From Plasmodiophora brassicae (lineage: Eukaryota), in NCBI GenBank assembly GCA_036867785.1, contig CP145424.1, forward strand, positions 124,001-188,000: 64,000 nt of DNA. The letters are read 5' to 3'. Under the pieces are notes generated by a model. That model had not been told where the DNA came from, did no database searches, and saw nothing but the letters and a program-made list of their open reading frames with translations. Both the position numbers and the translations under genes were made by a program. Below are positions 32,156 through 64,000 of the stretch, in pieces; positions within the stretch are counted from its first letter, which is position 1; each line of letters opens with the position of its first letter.

Positions 32156-32481
32156 CCGTCAAGGCGGCGACGACCGTGGGCAGCGACGGCTGGCGAGGTT
32201 CGCGCATTCCGCACGGCGCCGTATGGTCCGAAGGATCGCGTTGCGACCTGGGACGTTGACGAATACGAAATACATTAGGTCAGCGCCGGTGCGATGACCT
32301 GTACTGTTATGTGCGGATATCGAGGGCGACGCGCGTTGACTGCAGTTGCCGCCCGGGACATGAGTGCTGCTGCAGCGCGTACGTACGTACGGCAGGAGCT
32401 GCATGGAGGGTCGGACGGTCCGACAGCGTACGTAGCGGAACATTTTTTGGGGCGGCGGCGGCGGCGCGGCGACGGGTATCG

Positions 32482-35400
32482 ATGGACGCGCCGGCGATGC
32501 TGGTCGATAGCGCCCGTGCCGACCAGGATGCGTGCGACGACGTGCCCGATTGCGCCGTGTCGTATCAGTCGGCGCGCCATGCCGCTACACAGGTCACCGA
32601 CCTGCTCCGCGATGACGCGTTCGCTGGCGATCCGGCCGCCGGCGCTGAACGGGCGACTGCGCTGTTGTCAGCGTTCCAGGAGCACGGTGAGCTCCTTGAC
32701 GCATATCTGCCGGATCTGGTGTCACGTATTGCGTCGCTGTTGACCGGCAATAAGCAGTGTCCGCCCATCGTCGACGCTTGCTCGCTGATGATCTACACGT
32801 TGTGCAACGTACGCGGTGCGAGTACCGTTCGACAGTTGCTCCCGCACACCGTAGCCGACCTCACATTTGTAACCGATTATCTCGGCGCCAAACGTGATCC
32901 TGTGCCGTGGACGACGCAGTACGCCCTGATGCAGTGGCTGGCAGTCTGTGTTCTGGTTCCATTCCAGCTGGAAACCATCCTTCCCTATGCGGATCCGTCG
33001 CGGGCTCTGCTTGACTTGTCCATCACGTACCTGTGCAGGCCGGTTCCTCTGTCATCTGCCGCTGCCGCCTGTACTGCTCGCATTCTGTCACGATCTGACC
33101 CGATGGCCAATGACCGCATGCAGCAGTTCCTTCAGCGCATCCTGCCTATAGTCGCCGATGCAAACGATGCCAATGACGAGTGCATTGGAGCAATGACGGC
33201 TCTGGTGCAGGTCCTCAAGGTCGTGCCCCGGGATCGCGTCCAGCAGTATGCGCCAACCATCGCCGACGCGTGCTTAGCGCGTGACACTCTTTCGTCTAGC
33301 GTCACCGTGCGGAAGCTGTCCATGAAGATCCTACAGCGAGCAGGTCTTTCGATGATGCCAAATTCCATACCCTCCTGGCTGTACAATCGTGGTCGTCGGT
33401 CGTTGCTGCATGCCCTAACCTGGCCTGGCTCGTCTTACAAACCTGTCGACGAAGTATCCAGTGCGAACTCGCCCAAAGGGGACGTTACTCCAGGGGCATA
33501 TGGCCTCGTGCTCGACAAAATTTATGACCTCGTACGGGTCGAATCCATTATCGCCCGCCTGTTGGCCGGCCTTTCTGATGCAAATACCGTTGTTCGATGG
33601 TCATCGGCTAAAGGCATTGGTCGGTGCACGATGCGGTTAGGCCGCCAGCTCGCCGACGATATCGTTTCTTCCGTATTTGATAATTTGCGCTCGGAACCTT
33701 ATAACGCCGATGTGTGGCACGGCGGGCTCCTCTGCCTGGCTGAACTCATCCGGCGTGGCCTAATCCTGCCCGAGCGCCTTCATGAAGTAATCCCAATAGT
33801 TGTCGACGGCCTCGTTTTCGAACGCAGTCGAGGATCGCACGCTGTTGGGGTTCACGTTCGGGATTCGGCCTGTTTTGTTGCCTGGTCGCTGGGACGGGCC
33901 TACACGGCAACCGACCTAGCTGGACATGCATTGTCCCTTGCGTGCGCTCTCGTGCCTGTCGCTGTTTTCGATAGGGATGTCAACGTCCGTCGAGCTGCAT
34001 CTGCCGCATTCCAGGAAAACGCCGGTCGGCATGGGCTTTTCCCAGAAGGCATCCGTGTGACTACGACAGCAGACTACGCATCTGTCGGGATCGTGTCGAA
34101 TTCCTTCAAGAGAGTAGCGCCTGCTGTTGCAGCAATCAGTGATGCCTATCGTCATAGCTTGGTCCGACACCTCCTCATGTACAAGGTCGGTCACTGGGAT
34201 TTGCGGATACGTCTGCTGAGCGGCGATGCACTCTCCCTCATCGATCCTGCATCATGCGCAGACGTAATTCCCCGATGTCTGTCGGACGACATTTCCGAAA
34301 GGCATGGCGCTATCCACGCTCTGTCTTGTTGCATCCGTCGGTTGGGTCGAGTTCCCGATGAGCTGCAAGGCCCAGTGAGGAACCTGCCGATTCGAGTCGA
34401 GACAGGTGGCATGTTCAAGGGGCGTGGCTCTGACATGCTGCGCAGTGCTGTTTGTGCGCTCGTCGAATCCATATCGGCAGCGGGAATGCCGTTGGCCAGT
34501 CGGACTGTCGAGAAGTTGCATGCGATCGTCATTGAATGTCTGGAACAACCGTTGCAGCCAGTGCAGCTTTCGGCCACCAGTGCCCTACGTTCAGTCGTTC
34601 TCCAGTACTCACGGCAGTTGCCTCTTGACGATTTGGTGGATAATTCGGTCCATATCTTGGAGACATCTCTCAACGTACCGCTGGTTAGGGGCCATTGCAT
34701 GGCTCTAGGTGTCTACAACCGCCCTACTGCCAGAACTGTCCTCGCCCTCATCAAAGCCACTCTACCGGTTCAGCCTGACGACCGGCTTGACGTGGAGACT
34801 CGCGTGCAAGGTGTACATTCCCTCGCTTCTTTGTTGTCTCTAGAATGCGCTGTCGCTATTGACCCACCTGCTTCTTTTGGCTCGGGACACACAGAACCTT
34901 CCAATTTGCTATTGCAAGTTCTTGTGAAGGCATTGGATGACTACGCCATCGACAGTCGAGGCGACGTTGGAAGCTGGGTTCGCCTCGCGGCCATGGAACA
35001 TATTGCGGCAGCCATTGAGCGAATCCAAGGCGAACAGCATCTTCCCTTGGTCGAAACTGCCATGCAAGCTCTTGTCAAACAGGCCTGCGAAAAGCTGGAT
35101 CGGATCAGAGAGGCAGCGTGGGGAACACTAATGCAAGTGTCTAGCAAATGCCAAACATTGTGTAGCATTGTTATGCAGCCTGAGGACTGGGTTCATTCTC
35201 ATTTAAGGCTAGCCCCGCTCTTGGGAGATGCAGTGTATGGGAAGCATGTGTTTTCTGGGCTTATCCTTAGTGCTGGTGGGCAGACCGTGTCTGTGTCGAA
35301 GTCTGCTCTTCGTGCGATTGATTCTGCTCTCGACAATGCCGATAATCTCTGCGAGACTCTGGCGATTCGCAGCATTGCATTGTTTGACGATCACCAAGGT

Positions 35401-35991
35401 GATAATCGAGTCACTGTCCCTCTTTTCAAAACTCTTGGGTACGTCTTGACCAGGCCCAACTGTCGCATTCATTTTCGGGTTGTCAACGATATCCGAAAGC
35501 GAATCATTCGCGAGTCGCGAACGATTTCCTCCCGCATTGCATCTATTCCTCTCGTATGCGCTTTACTTCAATTCAATGCTCTACACCGAACGGTTCGTGA
35601 CGGCAACTTCCGCTGTGTCATGAAGTTACTTGTCCATCGGTTCCCCAGAATTCGAAGTGTTATGGCTGAGTCACTTTACAGTCAGCTGGTTGCGCTCGAT
35701 GCCGCCACTGTGGGGCTGGATGAGACTCAGTTCAATGCCGTCCTCGACATAGTGTTGGGGGTCTCGTGGCTAGAATGTCCAGACGAGGAACAAATTGCCT
35801 CGCTGCAGACGTCGCTGGGCATCGTTACAAATGCTTCCGGCGCTCGTCTGTCCCAAACGAAATTGTATGATCAGTCAAGTACACTCAGTGACAACGGACA
35901 CTACTGTTATTCAGGTAATGCTTGCATCCGATTCGAGGGAATTCACTAATTTGCAGCGTTAGATTTTGTATCCGGCCTCAGTCATCCATGA
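32482..35991 (+). CDS. TBCD: Tubulin-folding cofactor D
   Basis: 'DANTVVRWSSAKGIGR', 'WHGGLLCLAELIRRGL', 'VRDSACFVAWSLGRAY', 'FDRDVNVRRAASAAFQENAGR', 'LDDYAIDSRGDVGSWVR'. A small terminal intron (35915-35962) is inferred. Confidence 0.95.
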
Positions 35992-39470: not shown

Positions 39471-40604
39471 CGATGGCTGAGATCACGGATCAGGGCGAAC
39501 CATCGACGCTGCTCGGCATGCGCATCCGTCGCGAACCTGCCACCGGCGCCATCATGCTCGACCAGGCCGAGTACATCGACAAGGTGTTGAGCGACTTCAA
39601 CATGCCACATTGTCACCCGGTCGACACGCCACATCAACCTGGCGTTCACCTGACGAAATCGATGAGTCCACAGACGGACATCGAACGGGACGAAATGACG
39701 AACAAGCCCTACCTGAAGCTCATCGGATGCTTGACATGGCTCGCCCATCGATGCCGTCCGGATATTGCGTATATCACGAACGTCCTCGCCCAATTCTCGT
39801 CGAACCCCGGCATCTCCCACTGGCGCGCGGGGCAACGCGTCCTCAAGTACCTCGCCGGCACGAAGACGCACGGCATTCGATACGAACGGCAACTCGAGGA
39901 TCGCCTGGTCGCTTACGCCGATGCCGACTGGGCCTCGGATGCGGACACGCGACGTTCCCGTTCCGGTGATATCATTCTGCTGGCCGGCGGTCCCGTGCAC
40001 TGGCAGTCGCGACGCCAGGACCTAGGCGCCGTTAAGGTTGGTTAGTCTGTCGTCAACGCACGCTGAGATCAAATCGCTCTGCGCTGTTACCCGTCAGCTG
40101 TCCTGGATCCGGTCGTTCCTGGCGGAGATCGGCTTCCCGCGTCCCGGCCCGACGATCGTACACGAAGACAACCAAGGCGCGAAGGCCTGGTCTGGCTACC
40201 GTCGGATGGACGATCGAACGAAGGATATCGAGGTCCAGTTCCACTACACCAGAGAGGCAGTCGAGGCCGGTCTGATTGTGGTCCACAAGTGCCCGTCCGC
40301 CGAGATGGCGGCCGACTACCTGACGAAGCCCGCCCTCAGCACTTCTTATCACCCGAACCTGATCCTGGCCGGCATCATCGACACCGGTACCAGGGCGTGT
40401 GCTGCTGGAGGGGGCGTGTCAAACAACATGTCCAGTACAACCAGCAGCACATGCCTGCAGCACCCCGTCACGCATTCCGAAACTCCGCGCTCGCCGCCGT
40501 TGGCAGCCGTTTCGTCGCCGGCGACTACGTCGCCACTGTAACGTCCACAGTGCCGTTGCGCAAACGCCGTACGAAATACACTCACTTCGTTATTGTCTTC
40601 CTTA
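39471..40604 (+). mobile_element. 3' fragment of a Ty1/Copia element (RT end, RNase H, PPT, 3' LTR 40417-40604)
   Basis: 'CRPDIAY', 'YADADWA', 'EDNQGA', 'TKDIEVQFHY'; frameshift near 40040; GAGGGGGCG PPT followed by TGTC. Highly similar to 40925-42050. Confidence 0.92.
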
Positions 40605-40924: not shown

Positions 40925-43900
40925 TGAGAAGGACAATAATGAAGTGGATGTATTACGTACGGCGTGTGCGGCGGACGTTACAGTGGCGACGTAGTCGCCG
41001 ACGGTGTAACGGTTGCAACGCCGGCGGGCACGGAGTCGCGGAGTGCGTGACGGCGTTCACGTGCTGCAGGCATGTGCTGCTGGTCGTAGTGGATACGTTG
41101 TTCGACACGCCCCCTCCAGCAGCACACGGCCTGGGACTTGTGTCGATGATGCCGGCCAGGAGCAGGTTCGCATGATACGAGGTGCTGAGAGCGGGCGTCG
41201 TGAGGTAGTCTGCAGCCATCTCGGCGGACGGGCACTTGTGGACCACGATCAAACTGGCCTCGACGGCCTCCCGGGTGTAGTGAAACTGCACCTCGATGTC
41301 CTTCGTGCGATCATCCATCCGACGATAGCCAGACCAGGCCTTCGCGCCTTGATTGTCCTCGTATACGATCGTCGGACTGGAGCGTGCGAAGCCGATTTCG
41401 GTCAGGAATGACCGGATCCAGGCCAGCTGGCGGGTAACAGCACACAGCGACTTGATCTCTGCATGTGTGGACGATAAGCTAACTTTGACTGCGCCCAGGT
41501 CTTGGCGACGTGACTGCCAGTGCACGGGGCCGCCAGCCAGCAGGATGATGTGGCCGGAGCGCGACCGTCGCGTGTCAGGGTCGGATGCCCAATCAGCGTC
41601 GGCGTATGCGATCAGACGATCTTCGGGCTGGCGTTCGTATCGGATGCCGTGCGTCATGGTGCCGGCGAGGTACTTAAGAACGCGTTGCCCCGCACGCCAA
41701 TGCTGGATGCCGGGATTCGAGGAGAATTGGGCCAGTACATTCGTTATGTACGCGATGTCGGGACGGCATCGATGGGCGAGCCATGTCAGGCAGCCAATAA
41801 GTTTGAGGTACGGCTTGGTCGCCATTTCGTCACGGTCGAGGTCGCTTTGTGGACTCATTGTCGTTGATAGGTGAACGCCAGGCTGGTGCGGCGTGTCGAC
41901 CGGATGACAATGCGACATGTTGAAGTCGCTCAACACCTTCTCGATGTACTCGGCTTGGTCAAGGGTGATGGCGCCGGTGCCAGGTTCGCGTCGGATGCGC
42001 ATGCCAAGCAGGGTCGACGGTTCACCTTGATCGGTGATCTCGGCCATCGTGGAGAGCTTCTCGAGAACGGATTCCGCGAACGGGACGTCATTGTACGCCA
42101 GCAGACCGTCGTCGGTGTGCACCGACATGATCATGAACTTTCCATCGCGATCGTACCGGAAGACGCAGGGGTCCGCGATGATCGATTCGAATCCGAGTGA
42201 TAACAGCATCTCCCGAAGCGTCTTGTACCAACGTTCGGCGCCTTGTTTCGTTCCATAAAGGGCCTTTTGCAGTTGACGAACTCGGTACGGGACGTGATGA
42301 TCGGTGAAGCCATCCGGCTGACGAATGTAAACATCATGGAGCATGTCGGCGTTCAGGTATGCGGCCACCCAGTCGACCTGGCGAAGATGCAGGCCGTGCT
42401 GCGCCGCGAGCGCTAGGATAACGAGGAACGCAGTGGCACGGGCGGTCGGCGCGAACGTATCGTCGAAGTCGATGCCGGGGCGTTGTCGGAAGCCCTGAGC
42501 ACAGAGTCGGGCGGTGAACTTGCGGATGCCACCGTTGCCACTGAGCGAGGACTTCACTCGGAACACCCACTTGGCGCCAACAGCGATCTTACTTTTCGGC
42601 AGGTCGATTAGCGGGCCGAACGTGTCCTTGGCGTCCAGTGTTGCCATCTGGGTGACGGCGGCGTCCCACCAGTGGCCAGCGAAAGGTGATGAGAGGGCAT
42701 CGACCATTGAGTTGGGTACGGGAATGTCGGTCGCTTTCAGCTTCGACAGGTCGGGTCGTGGTAGACGGGCTGGGTCGATCGGGGCGGATACCTTGGCTCG
42801 ACATGCCTTGGCAGCGGCGCCGCGACATGTCGGACGGTTGGACCTGATGGCCTGATCGATCAGACGGCGCTCCTCAACCTGCTGCCAATGCCGGATCAGT
42901 CGGCGGGAGCGACGAGGAGGGCGCTGTGTCGGGAACGTTAGGGTCGGATTCTGGAACCAGGCGTCGACCGTCGAGGACCACCGTGTCGACGAACGATTGG
43001 CCGCCTCCGGCGCCTTCCACCATTCACCAGGCGGTTGACGACGACGATTCGATCGGCGAGGGCGTGGCACGTCGATGACATTGTGGTCAACGATATCAGC
43101 AGCATCGGAATTGTCGTGGACGTCGGGGTCGGCAGCTTCGTTGGGAGAGTCGTTGCTGGACGCCGAACCTTCGTAGTCGGGATCATCTTCAGCGTCATCA
43201 TCATCTTCGTCGGTGGATACGTCATCAGGAGACGGTGAGCGCGACGGTCGGACGATCTCGGAAGGCGATGACGCAGCGGCAGGTGACGGAGGCTCGGGAG
43301 GGGATGCTGCGAGAGAGGATGCTGACGTCGATGGTAGAGGTGCCATGACGGCGTCGGAAGAGACGGGCGTCGGGACGATCGTGTCAACGTTCGGCGCAGA
43401 GCTCGACTCGGGACTGGACGGTGGCGCTGATGATGAACTAGCAGGGCTGGATCTTCCAAAGCCGAATGTGAACGAGGTCTCCAGGAACTCGGCAGTCGTG
43501 CTCTCGAACGTGTCTTCCCGGTCCACGTCGTAGAACCGCCAAGCCTTCATGCCGGGCGTGAAACCGATAAACACAGCGCGAACACGACGAGGCTCCAACT
43601 TGCTCGGCTTCTTCGTGGCTGGATGCGGTCGCATGGCATAGGCATCGCAACCGTAGACACGAAGGGCCGAGATGTCAGGTAGGGCGCGACGAGCAGCCTC
43701 GAACGATGTGCGACGCCCGGGAAGGACTGATCTCGGGTGGATGTTGTACAGTATCGCAGAGTAGGACAGCGACCAGGGCCACGTGGAGTCAGGCATGCTA
43801 GAGTGGCACCGGATTGAGCTTTCGATACCTCAGAGCGTGTGGTTGACGCTTTCAGCGCGGCCGTTCTGCTCGGGCGTGTACGGGACAGATTTGCGGTGCA

Positions 43901-46900
43901 GGATGCCGGACTCGTTGTAGAACAGGACGCACGCCTTGGAGTTGTACTCGCCGCCACCGTCAGTCTGGAACGTCCGGATACCACGTCCTTCCTGGTTGCG
44001 AAGACGCGCGTCATAGTGCTTGATGACGTCGAGCGCCTCCGATTTGCGACGTAGCAGATAGACGGACAGGTACCGAGAGGAATCGTCAAGCATGGTCTGG
44101 TAGTACTCAAAGCCGCCGACACCGACGACAGGCCACCGTCCGGACAGATCGCTATGGACGAGATCGCCAACACGACGCGCGCGCGACGTACTGGGAGGGA
44201 ATGATGACCGTTTGCCCTTGGCGAGTAAACATGCAGCGCATGGACATCGATCTTGCGGCCTCGGGATTGGCCCGTCGAACTTCATGCCACGACAACGTTT
44301 GTGCAGGATGCGCAGGTTGCCGTAACCCAGGTGGCCGGTTCGAGCGTGCCAGACAGCTGGAGCTGCGGCGGTGACCTTAGCGACGCGGCATGAGACGCTG
44401 GATGCGATCAAGGAGCAGACTCGGGCGGAATGAAGTGTGCCGGGCGCGGAGGTTGGAGCGGATAATGGAATCCGGTACAGGTTATCGTGTCCTCGTTGAC
44501 TGACGGCCACTGGCTGACCGACGGGCGCCGTCCAGTTGGCCCCCGAGTAGATCTTCGCGGTATCGCCGTCGAACACGATCTTGTGACCTGATCTGGTGAG
44601 CTGGCCAACTGATACTAGCGCTTGGCCAAGTCGGGGAACGTGCAGCGAATCGATACTCGTCGCCTGGACATCCATGCCGAATGACGTCACGCCTCGACCG
44701 GAAGTGGTCGTACGCGACAGATCGGCTAGCTCAACTTCCGGTCCGGTGCCTTGGCGATAGCAGCTGAGATGTCGGCGCAGGGGCGTCATCGTCGTGGAAC
44801 ACGCTGAGTCCAGTAGGCCTACTGAGTTCGCGTACACGTCGATGGCGTGGCGTGCCGACAAAGCACGCATCGGCTCGGGCGCCGGATCGATCGGATGAGC
44901 GCCAGACGTTGGATACTCGTTGGACGTTGGTGAGGATGTATTGCTTTTCGCGTTGCTGTCGCGGTACCAGATGTGTCGTTGCAGCGTGCATTCGCCGTTA
45001 GTGTGCTTGGATCCGGGATGGAAGACGCAGGACTCGTTGCGTCGTGGTCCACGGGGACGCGTCGATGTGGCACAACTGGAGCGGTTGGCCGTTTGGAACG
45101 CGTCGTGTCGGTCCCGCACGTCTTGGACTCTGATCTCCTCGCTTGTCAACGACCCGACGACCTCGGAGACACTGTGCAGCGTGTCCAGAGCACGATTGTG
45201 CAGGCCAGCGACGACGGCGTCGAGATCGGATGATGCGTTGGCCAAGATGAGGACGGCGACCAATGCGTCGGTGAGGGACAGCATCTCGGTCGGTACCGTC
45301 GACCGGACGCGATGAGCCGCTGCTTGAACTCGGGCGGCGTACGTGGCGACCGACTCGCCGGGCATGTGCTGGACCGTGACGAGGTCGCGGACGGCGCGCA
45401 CGACCGATGCCAGCGACGACGGGCTGTACGCCTGGAACAGCACGCGCCAGCACTTGGCAGCCGAGCCTGCCTGAAACAAATGTCGAGGACCATGTCCTAC
45501 CACCGGTACACGATGACGCTGTGACTGTGCGCGGCTGTGTCACGTCCACAACAGAGGCTCCGCCACCGTCGCCGTTGCCGGTAACGGCTTTGGCAAGCCC
45601 TGTTACACTGCGTTACGTCGCCATCGTCTCGCGCCGATGTCAGTGGAATAAATCACTTCGTTATCGTCTTCATCAGATTAACAGTCGTAACAGCGCTCTG
45701 GGCGTCTCGCTCGCGTCCAACGTCATGGCCGATCGCGGCCGAACGGCGGCGGAATCAGATGTCCAAGATCTCGACGCGCAGCTCGCTGAGGCCGAGCGAC
45801 AGGAGAAGATCGCGCGCATCGCATTCCTGCGACAGCAAACCGCATCGTACTCCTGCATCGCCACGACGCCGACGACGCAGCCTCGCCCAACCACTGTGGA
45901 CGGCGTAGTGCGTCCAGGTACAGATCGCGTGCCTCCGCCTCGGTTCGACGGCAAGCACGAATCGTTTGCCGCTTGGGCGCCCGCCGCCGCGTCTTGGTTT
46001 ACCAACCGTGGATTCGCGGGAATTGTCGGCATCGACCTGGACGGATCGCCGACTCCGAGTATCCCCGACAATGTGGACGAGGATCTGGAGGCAACTGCTC
46101 GGGAGATACTCTTGTTTCAGATGGTCGACAAGACCGTTCTGATCGGCTACAACTTGCTGTACGCCGGTACATCGACGCAATGCTGGCGCGCTCTCTTCCG
46201 CATGCTGCGACCCTGCACGTTTTCGTCTGTCATTCGTGCTTCTAAAGATTTGTTCAGTGTTCGACAGCAAGCCGGTGAATCGGTCGCCTTGTACGCGGCT
46301 CGTCTGCAAGCCGCTGCCCAACGTTTCCGTACAACAGTCCCGAACGACATGCTTCACATGACGGATTCCTTCCTGGCTGTCCTGATGGCTGGCAACGCCT
46401 CATCAGAATTGGACACGGCCGCATCCAACCTGCACAGTCGTGGACTCGAACCGCGGCCTACCGTCACTGAGGTCGCATCAGAAGAGCAGCGCATTCAAGA
46501 GGCTCATGCTGACCGGGAGATATCGTTCGCAACGGCGAACCGTGCAAGCGCTACCGCACACCCGATCAAGGCTCCCGAACGCGATGGACTGTGCGTCCTA
46601 CATACGACCTTGAGGAAGCCGCACACGAATGGCAACTGTTTCCTACAGCGCTCGTTGTGGCGGACGACATCGAATACATCGTCGCAACCCGATCAGTACG
46701 TCCCGGTTTGCGCCATGTCTGCCCGTCACCCCGCCGTAGACAACAGTTCCGTCGGCCTGCTGTCGAGGACCATGTCCTACCACCGGCACACGATGACATT
46801 GTGTGGGTGCGCGGCTGTGTCACGTCCACAACAGAGGCTCCGCCACCGTCGCCGTTGCCGGTAACGGCTTTGGCAAGCCCTGTTACACTGCGTTACGTCG

Positions 46901-48363
46901 CCATCGTCTCGCGCCGATGTCGGTGGAATAAATCACTTCGTTATTGTCGTTCTTAGATTAACAGTCGTAGCGTTCGCGCGCTTCGAGGCGGCGAGCCCGC
47001 CGGCGCCCGGCGCGCCGGTGCCATCCAGAGCCAGTCCCGCGTCACTGCGTCTCTGCCCTGACCCTGCTTCTGCACAACGCGCCACGAACGCCCACTCCAG
47101 TCGCGCCACGCGCCAGAGAGCCGAGGCAGATCGTGCAAGCAAGGCAGGCCGTCATTACGGGAATCCAGAACCAGTTCCGGGACGTAAGCGCCAGGCGTAC
47201 GCCGGTCGTACGGGCCTCAATCGCTTGCCTCAACCTCTTCTCGATATAACGTTGTCCGCCGGCGCCTTCGGCGTCGGTGTCGTCCCGAGCCAGGTCCTTC
47301 AGTCTCTGTCGTCACTGTCGACTCCGCCCCAGCATATCGCGCCATACATGTCAGCTCTAGCTACGCCACGATCAGTCTCGTGTCGCGTCAACAAGCCAAG
47401 ACATACAAGCACGAGCAAGGTCGTGTTGTACATGATCCAGAGTCGAAGATCCAGCCGGGACACGTCCGTTCGACCTCCAACGGCACGCAAGGACCATGTC
47501 CTACCACCGGTACACGATGACGCTGTGACTGTGCGCGGCTGTGTCACGTCCACAACAGAGGCTCCGCCACCGTCGCCGTTGCCGGTAACGGCTTTGGCAA
47601 GCCCTGTTACACTGCGTTACGTCGCCATCGTCTCGCGCCGATGTCAGTGGAATAAATCACTTCGTTATCGTCTTCATCAACAAAGACAACGCGGACGCGA
47701 TCTTGTGGTCCAGCATGTGGACGAGTAGAATCTCGCGCGCGGCTGCCTCGAGAGCTGGGTCGTGTGCCGTACCGGTTGTCGCAGTCGGCGAGCCATCTTC
47801 GTTGATCCCGATGACGTCCGCGTACCCACGATTGCGAAACCAGAGTGCAGCTGTCTGAACCCAGGACGTGAACGAGTCGGGAGTACCGTCGAACTTGGGC
47901 ATGGGCAGTCGGCCTGCGTCGCTTCGGCTGTGCGCCTCGGCGATGATCGGCATGGCCGGGGTCGATGGACAGCTGGTCGGACGCGCCAGCTGCTGCTGCA
48001 GGACACGGAGACGGTCGATCTTCTCCTGCCTGGCGATCGTTGCCTCCGCTTCGGCAATTCGGGTGTCGATCTCCTCGAGCGACAGATGACGCAGCGGGTC
48101 GTCATCCGTGTTAGGCGTCGCCTGGCGCTCAGCCATGGCGAGTAGAGGCTCAGCGCCTGCGCCTATACGACTGTTAATCTGAGAAAGACAATAATGGAGT
48201 GGATGTATTACGTACGGCGTGTGCGGCGGACGTTACAGTGGCGACGTAGTCGCCGACGGTGTAACGGTTGCCAACGCCGGCGGGCACGGAGTCGCGGAGT
48301 GCGTGACGGCGTTCACGTGCTGCAGGCATGTGCTGCTGGTCGTAGTGGATACGTTGTTCGACA
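40925..48363 (-). mobile_element. Ty1/Copia element, LTR type A (5' LTR 48180-48363, 3' LTR 40925-41107); gag-pol interrupted by an insertion at 45481-47679 and a frameshift near 43830
   Basis: 184/183-bp TG..CA LTRs, PBS GATTAACAGTCGTA and PPT GAGGGGGCG. Domain order PR (LLDSAC) - IN (VHSDL..TDGGGEY..EQNGRAE) - RT (KWVF, ARLCAQGF, HTDD) - RH. Confidence 0.95.
45481..47679 (+). mobile_element. Internally deleted Copia, LTR type B, with three LTRs (45481-45675, 46761-46955, 47490-47679) and truncated gag 45725-46760
   Basis: Perfect TSD ACAAA (45476-45480 and 47680-47684). The empty site is visible in the uninterrupted copy near 63830. PBS follows LTR1 and LTR2. Confidence 0.93.
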
Positions 48364-51300
48364 CATGGAACAGGGGCTACCCCGCAAGTGGAGGCGGAGG
48401 CTCCGAAGGCTTGCCTTCAAGAGATGGAATGTCTGGAGAACGAAGATGGGACCAGATCCGGCAGCCAAGGTCACACCTTGCCGAACGCGGTTAAGGCAGG
48501 GAGCGCGACCGTACCGTTGTAAGGCGCGGAGGTACAGCAAGGAACAAAGTGAGTTCCTGGAACAGTTCGTATCCCTGTTGAAGAAATACGGGTTGGTCTA
48601 TGAAAACTACAACAGTGAGTGGGCCTCACCGGTGGTTGTTGTTCGGAAACCCGGGAACAGAGGATGGCGAATGTGTGTTGATCTAAGAGAGGTCAACATG
48701 TTGTGCGAAGCAACTGCATGGCCGATGCCGTTCCTAGAAGCCATTGTGCAACACTTGGCAGGATCCAAGTATTGGTTCTCTTTGGACGCATTTAAGGGCT
48801 TTTGGTTAATGCCTCTGGCAAAGGAATGTCAGGAAATATTCTCGTTCGCGACAGACAGGGGAATATACACTCCTACCAGAACAATTCAGGGAGGGTTGAA
48901 TTCGTCGCCTCAGTTCCAGGCACGGATGGCAGAAATATTCTCCGAATTACTGATGAAGGCACTCATCATCTGGATTGATGACATTCTGGGGCATGCTAGA
49001 ACTGAACAAGAATTGTTCAGAGTGTTAGACATGACACTGCATGTGGCTGAGAAGCATAACCTGAAATTCAATCTGGATAAGTGCGACTTCTTCTTGAGGA
49101 AGGTGAAATTCGCAGGGCGTATCTTCACGCCAGAGGGAACCACCCATGATCCAGAGCGAATACGAGCGCTGCAAGAAATGCAGACTCCCAGGACTGCAAG
49201 AGATTTGCAGCAATTCCTATATGCGGTACAGTGGATGAGCAAGTCAATACCGGAGTACAGCCGTATTGCCTTACCACTGCAGGAGATTTATGAGAAATCC
49301 ATGAAGGATCAGCCGAAGCGTACCAGATCGGTCACCGGGGGAGTAAGACTGAAAAGGCATGGCTGGAGTGAACTGCATGACACAGCTTTTGAAGAGCTGA
49401 AGGAATTGATTGGGAGGAACACCCAACTAGCATATCCAAGGAAGGATATGATCCAGTGTGTGTTTGCAGATGCAAGCAAGTACCACAGGGCAGGAAGGGT
49501 AACGCATATTCCCATGGAGGACAGAGATCTTCCAACCTGGGAGGCCCATCACCAACCATTGGGTTTCTCAGGCCACAAATTCGCGGGTTCAGAACTTAAC
49601 TGGGCGACTCCAGATAAGAAAGCCAGCGCACTGTTGGATGTAGTGGAGAAACTGGAGTATCTCCTACAGACGGGAAAACCATTCAGATTGTACACGGATC
49701 ACAGGAACCTGATGCACATATATGACCCACAGAAGTGCACGCAACCAGCAGCGGAACGGCTGGAGCGCTGGGGTATGAGGTTGCGGAAGTACAACTTCGT
49801 CATTGAGCATATTCCTGGGGATAAGAACGTGTGGGCTGACCTGCAAACGAGATGGGGTGCAGAAACTGGTCTCGGAAGAGATGCTGATTTGGAACACCAA
49901 ATCGACACCGGACGGGTAAAGTACGGAGACACCACAAATGTCTTCCGAATACTCCGAATTCGAAGTGATGAGGATCGGGACAGTTATCCGGAAGCTTCGA
50001 ATGGGGGCGTGGGGAATGAGGATCAGGAGATACATCCGGAAACCCATGACCGCGGTGTACCCAATAACACGGGTGTGGAGAATGAGGATCAGGAGATACA
50101 TCCGGAAATCCACAAACGTTGGGGGCAATTCGCTGAGAAATTCAGAATCCAACCCACACTGGAAGAGAAGCTTATCTGGCCTACAGAAACTGAAATCAGT
50201 GAAAGGCAACTGAAATTCTTCACGAAGGATAAGCTACGCAACCTGAGGAAGAACGAGGCTGGGTTATGGGTAAACCAGCGAGGACAGGTTGTGATCCCAT
50301 CGGAAGATGTGGAGATGAGAGTCAGGTTGACGGTTATTGCACATGCTGCAGGACTTGCACATCGTAGCATTAACCAAATGACACTTCTACTGCGAAGTAA
50401 ATTCCTCTGGAATGGCATATCAGCGGACATTAAGCAAATCGCGAAGAACTGCTTACACTGCCGACCCACACGAGGTGGTGAGGTGCGTCCACGACCACTG
50501 GGTCCAGCATGCCATGCTAAAAGACGGGGAGAGGTGAAGAGGCGGGACATGATTTCAAATGGATACTGGTATTGAGAGACGACTTCTCGGGACTCGTACA
50601 CCTAGTGCCAACGATAGTACCTGACAGCTTGGTCACGGTACAGGCACTGATGGAATGGAGGTCCAAGAATGGCACACCTAAGACAATTGTGTCAGACCAG
50701 GCATCATACTTCATGTCAGAGGTAACCAGGGAGTATAACAAGCTGTGCAATGTGAAACAACATTGGACGACGGCTTATATACATTACCCGAACGGAACGG
50801 TGGAAGTGGTCAACAGACATGTACTGGCATTATTTCGTACAATCTGCTCAGACTTGAGATGGCAGAAGGAAGAATGGCCATGGCTGCTAAAGGTGGTGGA
50901 GCATGTGCTCAACCACCGGCCACAGCAACGACTTGGGGGCCGAGCGCCTGTGCAGGTTCACAGCGGGCTGGAACCTGACAACCCTCTGGATGGAATCTGC
51001 ATCAACCCCGTCAGGGAGACACAAATCAATGTCACAGAAATGACTTCTGATGAAATTGTGAAGCTCACTGATGAGCTAATAGCCGCGCTGAATCAGATGC
51101 ACAAGGAAGTCGCTGATCTCAGTGAACGCCAGAGAGCACAGCGGCGACAGAGGGTTTCGGAAAATCGTATCCCGCCGAATGTATATCCGGGAGATTTCGT
51201 CCTTCGAGCAGAAACGCTCAGAGCTGGTGAGAAATTATTTCTCAAATGGAGAGGTCCATATCGTGTCACAGACGTCCACTCGGGATATGTCTTCGAGGTC

Positions 51301-52099
51301 GAAGACATAATCAGTGGGGACAAACACGTGGTACATGGTAGCCGACTTCAATTCTACTGTGATAAGAACCTCAACATCACGGAAGAGCTCAGGGAGCAAA
51401 TCGCCTATGACAACGCCAAATGGGAAATTGACACGATATCTGATGCACGCATGAATCGTGAACAAACCTTGGAGTTACTCATCAAATGGCGCGGCTTCAG
51501 CGAGGATGAATCCTCATGGGAGCCAGCTCGAATCATCATTGAAGACCAACCACGAATGGTGCAGGAATTCATCGATGAACACAAAAGTCATGCATTGGCA
51601 ACAGTGTTGCAGGACATGATGCCGCAACAATCCAATGTCATGAATCGTAGGTCATCACAACCGAAACAGGTGAAGGCCAAGCGGAAGTCGACGGGTAAGG
51701 CAGAAGCCAACGCCAAGCGTCGACGGCGCCGCAACTGAACACCGCACAGTTGTAGCCACTGGGCAAAATAGTTTTTAGTGGGTTTAGCGGGTGAGCACGA
51801 TGCAAGCCCCGCAGTACCTTGAAGTGGACTTCATGGTCTCAGGGCCGCTCGACATCGTATCGTCGAGGTCCAACGCAAAACGATTGTTGCGACGGACTAG
51901 GGAAAACATAACCTACGGAAGAATGATTCCCACATAATTTTTTCTAGCAAGCTTAACTACAACATGTAATGTGCAAGACACGATTTATTCTGTACAGCAA
52001 GACGTCTACAGCGCCAACAACAGGGTCAAAGCGCAACAGGGGGACTTTAGCTTGACGAGGGGAGTGTATCATATGCACAGCCTAGCTGCTGAAAAACGC

Positions 52100-52171
52100 G
52101 GGCGCCGCTGGGAATCGAACCCAGGGCCAACGGTTGAACGTACCGCTGCTGTACCACTCAGCTACGGCGCC
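52100..52171 (-). tRNA. tRNA-like cloverleaf in the TRIM 3' LTR (GTT at the anticodon position, non-canonical loop)
   Basis: GGCGCCG-TA-GCTG/AGTGGTA/CAGC-A-GCGGT/ACGTTCA/ACCGT-TGGCC-CTGGG/TTCGATT/CCCAG-CGGCGCC-C. A and B boxes are intact. Confidence 0.85.
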
Positions 52172-52339
52172 TGAAGTCCGACTGGCGTGAGGATTGGATG
52201 TATGTAATTCCTGACACGCCCCCTCAATCCGTAGCCAGGTGTGACGATGGTGTCTGTCCTGGGATCTACTACGGAAGAGGGCCCATTGGCGCCACGCATT
52301 TCTGTATGGCTATGTATAGCGCATACGACTGTTAATCTG

Positions 52340-52344
52340 AAAAA
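52340..52344 (-). terminator. T5 Pol III terminator after the LTR tRNA (second copy at 52092-52096)
   Basis: ...GGCGCCC-GCG-TTTTT-CA at the LTR end. Confidence 0.6.
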
Positions 52345-52347
52345 CGC

Positions 52348-52419
52348 GGGCGCCGCTGGGAATCGAACCCAGGGCCAACGGTTGAACGTACCGCTGCTGT
52401 ACCACTCAGCTACGGCGCC
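52348..52419 (-). tRNA. tRNA-like cloverleaf in the TRIM 5' LTR (identical copy)
   Basis: Identical to 52100-52171. Confidence 0.85.
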
Positions 52420-52725
52420 TGAAGTCCGACTGGCGTGAGGATTGGATGTATGTAATTCCTGACAGCTGCACCTATGATGATCACGGTCACACCTTGAACC
52501 GGCATGCAACTCCGCTAGACCACAACTACCGGAAACTCCGGGCAGGCACAGTCAACAGTCCCACAAGGTCCAGTCATGTGTTCCCAGAATAGACCGCGGA
52601 CTCCGGAGACCGTGGCGGACTCCGGAGACACACTGGAGGTTGGCAGACCAGCGGGCCAGGAATATATCAGAGTTCGAACTGCTTTTCGATGACAACGTCT
52701 CAATGCTAGATTGAGAGATGTCACA

Positions 52726-55700
52726 GAACCCTTGAGCGCAGAGACGAGCGCTGAACTTACGGATGCCACCGTCGCCACTGAGCGAAGACTTGACCCGGAA
52801 CACCCACTTGGCGCCAACAGCGATCTTACCTTTCGGCAGGTCGATGAGCGGGCCGAACGTGCCCTTGGAGTCCAGCGTTGCCATCTGGGTGAGGGCAGCG
52901 TCCCACCAGTGGCCGGCGAACGACGATGAGAGGGCCTCGGCCATCGTATTAGGAACAGGAACATCGATCGCTTTCAGACTCGACAGATCGGGTCGTGGTA
53001 GAGCTGCTGGGTCGATTGGCGCCTGTATCTTAACGCGGCAGGCGGAGACAATGCCACCACGAGCGGCCGGTCGATGGGATCGGATGGCCTCGCGGATGAG
53101 CCGGCGTTCTTCGACCTGTTGCCAGTGGTGAATCTGGCGGCGCGATGGGCGTGGCGGACGTTGAATTGGGGCTCTCAGCACTGGGTGCTGGAACCAGGCG
53201 TCCACCGTTGACGCCCACCGGGTGGAGGACCGGTTTGCCTTCGCGGGACCCTTCCACCATTCGCCCGGTGGTTGACGGTGACGTGTAGATCGACGAGGAT
53301 GCGGCATGTCCAGAACATCGTCGTCGGCGACGACATCAGCCGCAATATCCATGTCAGCAGGAGAGTCATCACCATCGTTGGCGGCATCAGCCGCAATATT
53401 CATGTCAGCAGGAGAATCAGCACCAGCGTCGTTGCCGGCCTCCTGATGGTCCTTAACGTCGGCATCAACGATGCTGGATGCGCGGTTGCCGTCGTGGTTA
53501 TCAGCGTCGACAGCAGCGTCGTTACCAGAATGACCGACGTTGCCGGCGAGATCAGGCAGGGGAGCATGATGGGTATGCGCAGATGGTTGAAGACGATCAG
53601 ATGACGGAGACTGTCGAACTCCATATCCAGCAGCACACTCGTGCAGCACACCGACGCTGCCACGCACTCCGCAAGTCTGGTGTCAGCGCCGCCCGCGATG
53701 ATGTAACGTGCACCGCGTCTCACGTCTACGACGTTGCCCGTCACACCCAATATCTTCGCTCTATATCCATCAATATATCTCACTCTGATTTCGTCGTTTC
53801 AGAGACGACACGACATTGGATGACACCGGAACGGGGGACGCTGATGGTAGCCGTGGGATAACGGCGTCGGCAGCAGCGGGTGATGATGTACGAACGGCAA
53901 CGGTGGACGGGGAACTGGACGCGAGTACGGGCGCGGCCTGTGAAGACTCGAGACCAGAGTTCGACCGCCCGAAGCCGAAGGTGAACGACGTTTCCAGGAA
54001 TTCGGCCGTCGTGCTCTCGAATGTGTCACCTCGTTCGACGTCATAGAAGCGCCATGCCTTCATCCCTGGCGTAAAGCCGATGAATACAGCGCGAACGCGA
54101 CGATGATCCAGCTTGGTCGGCTTCTTCGAAGAGGGGTGAGGGCGCATGGCGTACGCGTCGCAGCCGTAGACGCGCAGGGAAGAGACATCAGGTTTAGCGA
54201 AGCGAGCCGCCTGGAACGATGAGCGACGCCCCGGAAGGACGGATCGAGGATGGACATTGTAGAGGACGGCAGAATACGAGAGCGACCAGGGCCAGGTGAA
54301 ATCGGGCATACGCGCGTGACACCGGATAGCGCCTTCGATACAGCACAGGCTGTAGTTGACAATTTCGGCTCGGCCGTTCTGCTCGGGCGTATACGGAACC
54401 GACTTGCGATGAAGGATGCCGGACTCATTGTAGAACGTAACGCATGCCTTGGAATTAAACTCGCCCCCGCCGTCTGTTTGGAAGTCGGAAATGCCACGTC
54501 CCTCCTGGTTGCGTAGACGTGCATCGTAGTGCTTGATGACATCGAGGGCGTCCGATTTTCGACGGAGCAGGTAGACGGTCAGGTAGCGCGTTGAATCATC
54601 AAGCATGGTCTGGTAATACTCGAAACCGCCAATACCGACGACAGGCCACCGCCCGGAGAGGTCACTATGGACGAGATCGCCAACGCGACGTGCTCGTGAC
54701 GTACTGGGAGGGAATGATGAGCGCTTGTCTTTGGTGAGAAGACAGGCCTCGCATGGACATCGATACTGAAGCTTGGGAATGGGCTGATCGAAAGCCATTC
54801 CCCGACAGCGGCGCTGCAGGAGACGCAGATTGACGTAGCCGAGATGTCCAACGCACGCGTGCCAAAGGGCGGGCGATGCGGAGGCGACTGTGGCGGCGCG
54901 GCAGGACACGCTGGGCGCAGCCGATGAATAAATTTCAGTTGACGATGGGGCAGCGGGAGCACGCAGGGCGATCCTGTAGAGATTATCGGCTCCTCGCGTG
55001 CTGACCGCTAGCGGGGTCCCGACAGGGGACGTCCAGTGGTCCTTGGAATAGATGGTCGCGTTGGGCCCATCGAAGACGATCTTGTGCCCGGATCGGGTGA
55101 GCTGTCCAACGGAGACGAGCGCTTGGCCGAGTCGTGGGACGTGCAGCGAATCGATAGGCGTCATCTGGGACTGATCAGCGCCCAATGACGTCACGCCACG
55201 TCCGGAAGTGGTCGTACGAGACAGGTCTGCAAGTTCAACAGTCGGTCCGGCGACATGTCGGTAAGCGCCGAGATGCTCGCGCAGGGGCGTCATTGTGGTG
55301 GAACATCCAGAATCGAGCAGGCCGACGGAGCTGTTGTCTACGGCGGGGTGACGGGCAGACATGGCGCGAACCGGGACGTACTGATCAGGTTGCGACGATG
55401 TATTCGATGTCGTCCGCCACAACGAGCGCTGTAGGAAACAGTTGCCATTCGTGTGCGGCTTCCTCAAGGTCGTATGTAGGACGCACAGTCCATCCCGTTC
55501 TGGAGCCTTGATCGGGTGTGCGGTGGCGCTTGCGCGGTTCGCCGTTGCGAACGATATCTCCCGGTCAGCATGAGCCTCTTGAATGCGCTGCTCTTCTGAT
55601 GTGAGCGTGGACACGACCTCAGTGACAGTAGGCCGCGGTTCGAGTCCACGACTGTGCAGGTTGGATGCGGCCGTGTCGAATTCTGATGAGGCGTTGCCAG

Positions 55701-56445
55701 CCATCAGGACAGCCAGGAAGGAATCCGTCATGTGAAGCATGTCGTTCGGGAGTGTTGTACGGAAACGTTGGGCAGCGGCTTGCAGACGAGCCGCGTACAA
55801 GGCGACCGATTCACCGGCTTGCTGTCGAACACTGAACAAATCTTTAGAAGCACGAATGACAGACGAAAACGTGCAGGGTCGCAGCATGCGGAAGAGAGCG
55901 CGCCAGCATTGCGCCGATGTACCGGCGTGCAGCAAGTTGTAGCCGATCAGAACGGTCTTGTCGACCATCTGAAACAAGAGTATCTCCCGAGCAGTTGCCT
56001 CCAGATCCGCGTCCACATTGTCGGGGATACTCGGAGTCGGCGATCCGTCCAGGTCGATGCCGACAATTCCCGCGAATCCACGGTTGGTAAACCAAGACGC
56101 GGCGGCGGGCGCCCAAGCGGCAAACGATTCGTGCTTGCCGTCGAACCGAGGCGGAGGCACGCGATCTGTACCTGGACGCACTACGCCGTCCACAATGATT
56201 GGGCGAGGCTGCGTCGTCGGCGTCGTGGCGATGCAGGAGTACGATGCGGTTTGCTGTCGCAGGAATGCGATGCGCGCGATCTTCTCCTGTCGCTCGGCCT
56301 CAGCGAGCTGCGCGTCGAGATCTTGGACATCTGATTCCGCCGCCGTTCGGCCGCGATCGGCCATGACGTTGGACGCGAGCGAGACGCCCAGAGCGCAGTT
56401 ACGACTGTTAATCTGAAACGACGAAATCAGAGTGAGATATATTGA
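52726..56445 (-). mobile_element. Ty1/Copia element, LTR type C: 5' LTR remnant 56414-56445, gag-PR-IN from 56364, RT cut by the Gypsy at 52725
   Basis: PBS 56400-56413; 'LLDSGC', 'VHSDLSG', 'TDGGGEF', 'KWVFRVK', 'ARLCAQGF|'. Confidence 0.94.
53612..53801 (+). mobile_element. Solo Copia LTR (type C, 190 bp) inserted antisense into its own family
   Basis: TGTCGAAC...TTTCA with perfect TSD GAGAC. Its last 32 bp equal the reverse complement of 56414-56445. Confidence 0.93.
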
Positions 56446-56664
56446 GGGTCGTCAGAATTAGCCCTATCTGGTCCGGGAGAAGCGCTTCTAGCGGTACGCT
56501 TCTTTTGCTAAGAAGCTGCTTCTCCGGATAAGAAGCTCGGGTGCACCCTGCTTCAAACTCTGAAGAAGCAGCTTCTCCCCGGAATGAGCGCGGTGGCGGT
56601 CTTTTTGATCGGGTGACGTCGGGTATGCGACAGAGATTACAGTGGCCTGCGCTGTCCATCAACC

Positions 56665-63157: not shown

Positions 63158-64000
63158 TGTCGAACAACGTATCCACTACGACCAGCAGCACATGCCTGCA
63201 GCACGTGAACGCCGTCACGCACTCCGCGACTCCGTGCCCGCCGGCGTTGGCAACCGTTACACCGTCGGCGACTACGTCGCCACTGTAACGTCCGCCGCAC
63301 ACGCCGTACGTAATACATCCACTTCATTATTGTCCTTCTCAGATTAACAGTCGTATAGGCGCAGGCGCTGAGCCTCTACTCGCCATGGCCGAGCGCCAGG
63401 CGACGCCTAACACGGATGACGACCCGCTGCGTCATCTGTCGCTCGAGGAGATCGACACCCGAATTGCCGAAGCGGAGGCAACGATCGCCAGGCAGGAGAA
63501 GATCGACCGTCTCCGTGTCCTGCAGCAGCAGCTGGCGCGTCCGACCAGCTGTCCATCGACCCCGGCCATGCCGATCATCGCCGAGGCGCACAGCCGAAGC
63601 GACGCAGGCCGACTGCCCATGCCCAAGTTCGAAGGTACTCCCGACTCGTTCACGTCCTGGGTTCAGACAGCTGCACTCTGGTTTCGCAATCGTGGGTACG
63701 CGGACGTCATCGGGATCAACGAAGATGGCTCGCCGACTGCGACAACCGGTACGGCACACGACCCAGCTCTCGAGGCAGCCGCGCGCGAGATTCTACTCGT
63801 CCACATGCTGGACCACAAGATCGCGTCCGCATTGTCTTTGTTTCAGGCAGGCTCGGCTGCCAAGTGCTGGCGCGTGCTGTTCCAGGCGTACAGCCCGTCG
63901 TCGCTGGCATCGGTCGTGCGCGCCGTCCGCGACCTCGTCACGGTCCAGCACATGCCCGGCGAGTCGGTCGCCACGTACGCCGCCCGAGTTCAAGCAGCGG
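63158..64000 (+). mobile_element. Ty1/Copia element, LTR type A (5' LTR 63158-63341, PBS 63342, gag from 63385), running off the window
   Basis: Near-identical inverted copy of 47680-48363 joined to 45320-45480. Confidence 0.95.

Follow-up and report, generated by a model that had tools for sequence, protein, structure and literature searches.

What kind of element carries a complete tRNA-like unit in each of two identical terminal repeats, and how might it be copied? The question is raised by a 375-bp unit within a 64,000-nt stretch of Plasmodiophora brassicae DNA (GenBank assembly GCA_036867785.1, contig CP145424.1, positions 124,001 to 188,000), referred to here as the window. An initial annotation, made from the sequence alone, had described the unit as a miniature long terminal repeat (LTR) retroelement whose LTRs are built around a tRNA gene and which depends on a local Copia family. 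Our analysis identifies it as a terminal-repeat retrotransposon in miniature (TRIM). With a probability of about three in four, we regard it as a P. brassicae TRIM of the Helenus type ('TRIMp3'), i.e. a Copia-dependent element with an RNA polymerase III (Pol III)-type unit in its LTRs.

Structure of the element

The element consists of two identical 127-bp LTRs of the form TG..CA, separated by a 121-bp interior and flanked by a 5-bp target-site duplication (TSD), GCTGC, exactly as initially annotated (Table 1). A direct-repeat search returned two copies with 100 % identity, 52089-52216 and 52337-52464, spaced 248 bp apart; owing to a chance match of one flanking C, the repeat measures 128 nt, whereas the LTR itself has 127 nt. 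The sequence print-out also bore out the order proposed for the LTR, with 45 nt followed by a 72-nt cloverleaf and the 10 nt GCGTTTTTCA, adding up to 127 nt. These last 10 nt, behind the tRNA-like cloverleaf, read GCG-TTTTT-CA. Both promoter boxes, A (TAGCTGAGTGG) and B (GGTTCGATTCC), were read in each LTR as claimed. An AT-rich stretch occupies LTR positions 8-19, approximately 30 nt upstream of the tRNA-like promoter. Over the whole 375 bp, the sense strand has just two T runs of at least four, both of them LTR-terminal T5 runs.

The longest ATG-started frame of the element has 63 codons and lies on the antisense strand, and an open reading frame (ORF) and Pfam scan found no ORF bearing a Pfam domain that overlaps it. 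The element thus displays the characteristics of a TRIM: a length below 1000 bp, two LTRs, no coding capacity, a primer-binding site (PBS) together with a polypurine tract (PPT) at the LTR borders, and a TSD. With its LTR borders marked by PBS and PPT and its 5-bp duplication, 52090-52464 is a real TRIM.

Table 1. The TRIM and the retroelements around it, in window positions; the TRIM is read 5' to 3' on the minus strand.
Feature	Position	Strand	Length	Evidence
TRIM element, whole	52090-52464	-	375 bp	
TSD GCTGC, element's 3' side	52085-52089	.		Direct reading
3' LTR, TGTCAGG...TTTTTCA	52090-52216	-	127 bp	Direct-repeat search, ARAGORN, Rfam, sequence print-out
3' LTR upstream part	52172-52216	-	45 nt	
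3' LTR tRNA-like unit	52100-52171	-	72 nt	ARAGORN, Rfam
3' LTR A box	52154-52164	-		
3' LTR B box	52111-52121	-		
3' LTR T5 run	52092-52096	-		
3' LTR terminal CA	52090-52091	-		
PPT GAGGGGGCG, adjoins 3' LTR	52217-52225	-		
Internal region, non-coding, contains just PPT and PBS	52217-52337	-	121 bp	
PBS GATTAACAGTCGTA, adjoins 5' LTR	52324-52337	-		
5' LTR	52338-52464	-	127 bp	Direct-repeat search, ARAGORN, Rfam, sequence print-out
5' LTR upstream part	52420-52464	-	45 nt	
5' LTR tRNA-like unit	52348-52419	-	72 nt	ARAGORN, Rfam
5' LTR A box	52402-52412	-		
5' LTR B box	52359-52369	-		
5' LTR T5 run	52340-52344	-		
5' LTR terminal CA	52338-52339	-		
TSD GCTGC, element's 5' side	52465-52469	.		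Direct reading
Copia copy 1 ('family B'), defective	40925-48363	-		Pfam, repeat comparison, sequence
Copia copy 2 ('family C'), defective	52726-56632	-		Pfam, sequence, homology boundary
Further Copia-B 5' end, same PBS after family-B-type LTR end	63342-63355	+		
Copia-B 3' end	40408	+		
LTR-A array, three repeats	45481-47693	+	~195 bp per repeat	Repeat comparison
Ty3/Gypsy pol, 5'-truncated (reverse transcriptase, RNase H, integrase zinc finger, chromodomain)	48364-51738	+		Pfam

The tRNA-like unit

ARAGORN reported a 72-nt tRNA with the anticodon GTT in each LTR, accounting for two of its three calls in the window. Both units matched Rfam family RF00005 over model positions 1-71 of 71 with 57.6 bits (gathering score 29, E = 2e-11), so that the covariance model supports the full cloverleaf expected in both LTRs; all four stems are paired in the Rfam alignment. 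The minimum-free-energy fold of the 72-nt unit gave no cloverleaf (z -2.1). Since minimum-free-energy folding commonly misses the tRNA cloverleaf, the structure was judged from the covariance-model alignment and not from this fold. An Rfam E-value scan of 51500-53100 listed only the families tRNA, mascRNA-menRNA and Vault; 5S was absent. The tRNA-derived sequence of the LTR contains box A (TRGCY..YGG) and box B (GGTTC) in the form described for Helenus.

The cloverleaf is complete, yet its anticodon loop is non-canonical. In the Rfam alignment the loop reads ACGUUCA with C33 and C37, a feature absent from the initial annotation. Working elongator tRNAs have a near-universal U33 and a purine at position 37. 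By these two positions, the LTR unit does not qualify as a functional tRNA-Asn. A manual comparison of its anticodon arm with the tRNA-Asn arm implied by the PBS found 6 of 17 positions shared.

Replication signals and the predicted primer

The PBS GATTAACAGTCGTA occurs in six exact copies in the window and in one copy with two mismatches, with a chance expectation of 0.14; none of 100 shuffles reached seven matches. All six exact copies directly follow an LTR end, ..TCA or ..TTA. The PPT GAGGGGGCG followed by TGT was found in three exact copies and one with a single mismatch (chance expectation 0.55; 0 of 100 shuffles reached four), and the other two exact copies mark Copia-B LTR starts at 41105-41116 on the minus and 40408-40419 on the plus strand. 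By these counts the PBS and PPT are letter-identical to those of the neighbouring Copia-type elements, as initially stated, and the same applies to the LTR end motifs, which are those of the Copia families in the window. Beyond PBS and PPT, the 121-bp interior of the TRIM has no similarity elsewhere in the window.

In the complement of the PBS, a 5-nt stem is followed by the loop CUGUUAA and then by 2 nt of the returning stem. This complement reads as the anticodon arm of tRNA-Asn(GUU), the stem part UACGA being putative for P. brassicae. E. coli tRNA-Asn, as shown in PMC13363220, has within its anticodon arm the 11-mer GACUGUUAAUC, which covers 11 of the 14 PBS nucleotides; the match of 11/14 nt, over the loop and the adjacent pairs, is thus one to a bacterial tRNA-Asn. 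No complementary run of at least 5 nt was found between the LTR tRNA-like sequence and the PBS, indicating that the LTR unit is not the primer. According to the main text of Kojima 2024 (PMC10886601), most fungal Helenus elements and their Copia partners use anticodon-loop priming, a tRNA-Asn-GTT anticodon-loop primer is used once among the fungal Helenus lineages, and Ty5 and Drosophila copia are the cited precedents for anticodon-region 'half-tRNA' priming.

Copia elements as potential partners

Pfam assigned the neighbouring elements to Ty1/Copia (gag, Retrotran_gag_2, Pol_BBD, gag_pre-integrs, rve, SH3_retrovirus, RVT_2). Judged by sequence, family C is the closest relative of the TRIM in the window: a 27-nt match of 92.6 % to Copia copy 2 extends from the LTR end across the PBS to 8 nt beyond it. 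The Copia 2 LTR ends in ..CGTTTCA and is followed by a PBS identical to that of the TRIM and, after a 2-nt indel, by TGCGCT. Beyond this match and the PBS and PPT, the TRIM matches only itself in the window. The same PBS is combined with LTR types B, C and A, and with the TRIM's own LTR as a further type. The family-C leader, too, occurs behind two different LTR types within the window.

The initial annotation had called the neighbouring Copia copies autonomous, which proved incorrect, as both carry in-frame stops, one is interrupted in gag and the other is truncated in the reverse transcriptase (RT). Copia 1 has LTRs at 48363-48180 and 41107-40925, a PBS at 48166-48179 and a PPT at 41108-41116. 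Its 1516-codon gag-pol frame contains one in-frame TGA at 43830-43832 (minus strand), within the integrase core, and the plus-strand LTR-A array, a nested insertion, interrupts gag. A 1651-aa database protein, marked as one that the window itself encodes, matches the region of the TGA at 100 % identity, so that a gene model probably bridges this codon. In Copia 2, the 5' LTR ends at 56414 and, in our reading, starts near 56632; the PBS lies at 56400-56413 and is followed by an ORF for gag, protease and integrase (53770-56364). This copy has three in-frame stops and is cut off within RT, where its homology to Copia 1 ends at 52726. Position 52726 is a sharp junction of two repeats, at which contigs from two public runs (X2 and X12, see below) have loose ends in both directions.

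The LTR-A repeats are 93-94 % alike and arranged in tandem, separated by interiors of 1085 and 529 bp. Behind the first and the second comes the PBS of the TRIM (45676-45689 and 46956-46969), behind the third an unrelated flank, and the first interior opens with a family-C-type Copia leader. The ORF 45407-46864 in this array belongs to no Pfam family. The array looks like an LTR-interior-LTR-interior-LTR arrangement of non-autonomous Copia derivatives nested in the Copia 1 gag. A protein-database search for an intact Copia partner returned only partial proteins named for P. brassicae and the window's own gene model. Hence, of the proposal that a Copia partner is identifiable in the same window, the shared signals stand, but all window copies are defective.

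Insertion site, further copies and mobility

We listed 24 public runs, none of which is recorded as RNA; 20 of these, from 10 studies, contained at least half of the sampled words. Four of the 24 (X2, X12, X18 and X19), chosen to cover four coded organisms, were examined by contigs, which cannot reveal RNA starts, ends or level. The same insertion locus was bridged in two of the four. In X18, a 559-nt contig extends from within the interior across the 5' LTR to the right flank and shows no differences, and X19 contigs bridge both TRIM junctions; those of X2 and X12 break off precisely at the LTR borders. No other letters occurred within 52090-52464 in any of the four runs, and the flanks showed several.

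Contigs of all four runs contain a joint that skips 380 bp (52083 to 52464, i.e. 375 + 5) and retains a single GCTGC. Accordingly, the 44 nt at the insertion site (52064-52083 plus 52464-52487) are contiguous without the TRIM in each run. The contigs in question match the window for just 20 nt on the left and 24 nt on the right and then diverge. Because the flanks beyond these 44 nt are unlike the window, the empty site is paralogous and not an empty allele. Each half of the 44-nt target occurs only once in the window. The 44-mer is weakly palindromic around GCTGC, 8 of 11 arm positions pairing by eye. In X2, one contig continues from the U5 end of the LTR into a flank that differs from both the PBS and the window flank, showing that at least one more LTR locus exists. 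Four 30-letter consensus strings from loose ends (at the paralogue, the other LTR flank and the 52726 junction) had no match in the window with up to three mismatches. Thus, of the dispersed copies and empty site that the initial annotation had suggested looking for, a paralogous empty site and a further LTR flank were seen, but no empty allele in the four runs.

In X19, a contig joins the left flank, one LTR and the right flank and skips 248 bp, and no contig covers 52110-52314, which includes most of the interior (52217-52337). X19 represents a solo-LTR form, although graph assembly of identical repeats at low depth (4.8) can mimic such a form. The uncovered interval counts here only in combination with the contig that joins across it. 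The suggestion that the element was recently active has its sole basis in the identity of the two LTRs, and the same locus is bridged in X18 and X19 as well. Contig depth in X2 was approximately 450-600 in the flanks, 1329 for the TRIM contig and 1216 for the empty-site contig. The value for the TRIM is about 2.7 times that of the flanks and can at most hint at a handful of copies, contig depth not being equivalent to copy number.

An 866-nt contig of X12 begins with the last 16 nt of a TRIM-type LTR (matching 52324-52353 with the PBS) and continues into the family-C leader, which is one letter off the leader of Copia 2 in the window. This contig is either a recombinant or a Copia element with a tRNA-bearing LTR. 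A metagenome scan with a 32-nt string from the LTR 3' end gave no matches. A second scan with TTTCA plus the PBS (19 nt) gave six loci (L001-L006), three of which resemble LTR/PBS junctions by eye. No tRNA was found at these six loci, and four ORFs taken from two of them (L001 and L002) belong to no Pfam family; the resemblance judged by eye proves nothing.

Proposed mechanism and alternative explanations

The TRIM has retained just those cis signals that a Copia reverse transcriptase and integrase require (the LTR ends TGTC...TCA, the 14-nt PBS, the PPT and the 5-bp duplication) and carries no genes. We propose that it would be copied in trans by Copia proteins, most likely those of family C, and that a 5' piece of tRNA-Asn(GUU), ending in the anticodon stem, would prime reverse transcription, cleavage of the primer being assumed. 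Each LTR appears to form a whole Pol III unit, made up of the cloverleaf containing the A and B boxes, then a trailer of 3 nt and finally T5. The T5 run is located 3 nt after the tRNA-like unit and 2 nt before the PBS, and because it lies between the two, a full-length RNA requires read-through. Pol III reading through the first T5 would meet no other T run before the T5 of the 3' LTR, where it would stop. In the resulting RNA, the repeated region (R) would be the tRNA-like unit of ~80 nt, the 5' unique region (U5) only CA and the 3' unique region (U3) 45 nt. The captured unit ends exactly at the oligo-T beside the LTR's terminal CA, which suggests that a pre-tRNA transcript may have been captured by template switching during reverse transcription. 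In Cassandra, promoter and terminator of Pol III both lie in the LTR and read-through transcripts occur (PMC7215508). From the arrangement of these motifs, we favour Pol III transcription of the TRIM with moderate confidence.

Several points weigh against this proposal. An efficient stop at the first T5 would yield a dead-end RNA of ~80 nt without a PBS. Going by established tRNA processing, RNase P and RNase Z should be drawn to an intact 5' cloverleaf and would then sever R from the rest of the RNA. The Pol III step is predicted from the DNA sequence, none of the 24 runs being recorded as RNA, and the primer stem UACGA is likewise putative. Similarity to the empty site stops only 20 and 24 nt from the insertion. 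The copy number appears very low, given the single copy in the window and the ~2.7-fold depth in X2, and no intact Copia was seen among the window copies or the database hits.

The closest competing explanation accepts a Copia-dependent TRIM and treats the tRNA-like unit as a passenger: the genomic RNA would be made by RNA polymerase II (Pol II), either from the 45-nt part or by read-through from a neighbour, and Pol III would produce nothing but the short dead-end RNA. We consider this unlikely. The T5 run 3 nt past the tRNA-like unit and ahead of the PBS fits it, as do the tiny size of the TRIM family and the location inside a dense nest of transcribable LTR elements. The cloverleaf is also fully intact, as would be expected of a young passenger, whereas tRNA-derived heads of short interspersed nuclear elements (SINEs) usually degenerate. 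However, 45 nt is short for a Pol II promoter plus R; the lack of any further T run of at least four in 375 bp fits selection, or luck, favouring passage of Pol III; and the captured unit terminates right at the terminal CA of the LTR, where the R/U5 end of the transcript is expected. Moreover, Helenus and Cassandra show that Pol III promoters have repeatedly been retained in TRIM LTRs.

The two remaining explanations concern the nature of the unit itself. It is highly improbable that the LTR unit is a working tRNA gene and that the role of the element is to spread or duplicate tRNA-Asn genes. The Asn-GTT assignment by ARAGORN, the high covariance-model score with four paired stems and the intact A and B boxes and terminator would suit such a gene, but the loop ACGUUCA has C33 instead of U and a pyrimidine at 37, and the 6/17 anticodon-arm positions shared with the PBS-implied tRNA-Asn in the manual comparison are few. 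Kojima also finds most Helenus tRNA-like sequences non-functional by isotype disagreement (PMC10886601). A local 248-bp tandem duplication around a genuine tRNA gene, mimicking two LTRs of a retroelement that does not exist, would likewise give identical direct repeats 248 bp apart and a single copy in the window. We assign it a next to negligible probability, as it would have to produce by coincidence repeats ending TG..CA, a 14-nt PBS and a 9-nt PPT exactly at the repeat borders and equal to the signals of the Copia copies, and a 5-bp duplication flanking the whole unit. It is also contradicted by the contig with an uninterrupted target and one GCTGC, by the other LTR context and the solo-LTR form, and by the non-canonical anticodon loop.

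Within the preferred explanation, that of a Copia-dependent TRIM with a Pol III-type LTR unit, a more specific history can be sketched. The tRNA-bearing TRIM might have arisen independently and recently in Rhizaria, when a Copia-derived LTR took up an entire Pol III primary transcript (tRNA, trailer and oligo-U) at its U5 end; R would then correspond to a complete Pol III unit and U5 to CA alone, and the LTR type might also be exchanged with coding Copia elements. The exchange is suggested by the 866-nt contig of X12 and by the family-C leader behind two LTR types in the window; we regard this history as a whole as distinctly doubtful. Should there be a gag-pol Copia with the tRNA LTR, this would mean a protein-coding LTR retrotransposon whose LTR is of the Pol III type. 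Kojima argues that such an element is unlikely (PMC10886601).

Genomic surroundings

The TRIM lies 351 bp past the stop codon of the Gypsy pol, within a dense nest of LTR elements identified by Pfam and repeat comparison. Just ahead of it, a purine run GACGAGGGGAG followed by TGT occupies 52054-52066, and the left edge of the paralogous empty-site match falls at 52064. The interval 52054-52066 may represent the Gypsy PPT and the start of its 3' LTR, with 52064 as the LTR start. Apart from Copia RT homology from 52726 onward, neither flank (51400-52089 and 52465-53100) is found a second time in the window, and for this reason no 5' LTR partner was found for the supposed Gypsy LTR. The insertion into a host Gypsy LTR that was originally described is plausible, given the purine run and TGT downstream of a chromodomain-bearing Gypsy pol, but the pairing of two LTRs was not found in the window.

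In the right flank of the TRIM, a 15-nt motif GCGGACTCCGGAGAC is repeated 19 nt apart at 52596-52629. The interval 52479-52642 had a several-fold higher contig depth in X2 than its neighbours, with loose ends at 52581/52582 and 52639, and appears to be a small dispersed repeat module. The G+C content of the window ranges from 50 to 75 %. It is 63-75 % in 1-30000, where long overlapping ORFs occur on both strands, and 50-62 % in the nest of transposable elements (TEs) from ~38000 on. The ORF 32311-35949 encodes tubulin-specific chaperone D, with 100 % identity to a P. brassicae protein over 94 % of its length. The third ARAGORN call, a 92-nt tRNA-Arg(TCT) at 14844-14935 (minus strand), is GC-rich, coding-like and without a T run behind it. 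It is probably a false positive, and with its GC-rich sequence and lack of a T run it was discarded as a comparison tRNA.

Significance and comparison with known systems

As initially noted, tRNA-containing TRIMs have been reported as Helenus, and Kojima 2024 (PMC10886601) groups them with Cassandra and Ajax as 'TRIMp3'. There, Helenus is defined by structure and considered polyphyletic, and its Pol III transcription is stated to be unvalidated. The hosts in Table 1 are Basidiomycota, six animal phyla and Selaginella only, and the words protist, Rhizaria and Plasmodiophora occur 0 times each in the main text (PMC10886601). The suspected protist host was correctly recognised; it is P. brassicae, the clubroot protist and a member of the Rhizaria, and is not in that table. 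Our literature search turned up no description of a TRIM, a TRIMp3 or any non-autonomous LTR element in P. brassicae. A 2026 P. brassicae pangenome preprint contains 0 instances of 'tRNA' and of 'non-autonomous' and four hits for 'trim', including Trimmomatic, none naming a TRIM in the passages shown. The element type has thus been known since 2024; judged from the main text of Kojima, what is new is the rhizarian host, and with it a new eukaryotic supergroup.

The range of tRNA-bearing TRIMs (Helenus/TRIMp3) is thereby extended from fungi, animals and one lycophyte to the stramenopile-alveolate-Rhizaria (SAR) supergroup, a case that lends support to the idea that Pol III promoters have been recruited by LTR retroelements on repeated occasions. 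The copy is unusually clean: its cloverleaf is complete, it has a trailer and a terminator of its own, its LTRs are identical, and a Copia partner family can be identified by PBS, PPT and leader. This makes it a compact example for studying how a Pol III transcript can act as the genome of an LTR retroelement. In practical terms, annotations of P. brassicae will list such LTRs among the tRNA-Asn genes, as with the two calls here, and TE-rich regions gain TFIIIC/Pol III sites from them. The TRIM has no evident bearing on pathogenicity.

Among the known systems, fungal Helenus elements (Pucciniales and some Agaricomycetes) are the nearest in structure. The size of the P. brassicae element falls within the Helenus range of 311-1263 bp (PMC10886601), and the 5-bp duplication is shared. 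In both, the PBS is common with Copia and complementary to a tRNA's anticodon loop and not to its 3' end, and the tRNA-like sequence of the LTR is not complementary to the PBS. In contrast to the fungal elements, the P. brassicae TRIM belongs to a host supergroup, Rhizaria, absent from Table 1, has a very low copy number compared to tens to hundreds, and combines a complete, high-scoring cloverleaf with its own trailer and a T5 run at the very end of the LTR. The assignment to the Helenus type is one of structure, and an independent origin is plausible.

Cassandra, the plant TRIM with 5S rRNA in its LTRs, is likewise non-autonomous and has a Pol III promoter and terminator in its LTRs. It differs in its module, which is 5S; that of the P. 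brassicae TRIM is tRNA-like, the Rfam scan of 51500-53100 having listed no 5S family. To our knowledge, the autonomous partner of Cassandra is unknown, whereas the P. brassicae TRIM is accompanied by a Copia family with the same PBS and PPT. Ajax, a nemertean TRIM with a partial 5S promoter, shares the TRIMp3 concept and the 5-bp duplication; the P. brassicae TRIM differs in having a full tRNA-like unit and an anticodon-arm PBS.

The anticodon-region PBS also has counterparts in Drosophila copia and yeast Ty5, whose PBS, according to Kojima (PMC10886601), pairs with a tRNA anticodon stem-loop and not with the CCA end. The primer of both is the initiator tRNA-Met, whereas the PBS complement in P. 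brassicae carries GUU (Asn). Finally, tRNA-derived SINEs (SINE2) are similarly short and non-coding, contain a tRNA-type internal Pol III promoter and need an autonomous retroelement. They lack LTRs, PBS and PPT, and the non-LTR machinery of long interspersed nuclear elements copies them via target-primed reverse transcription. Unlike SINE2, the P. brassicae TRIM has all the cis signals of an LTR element.

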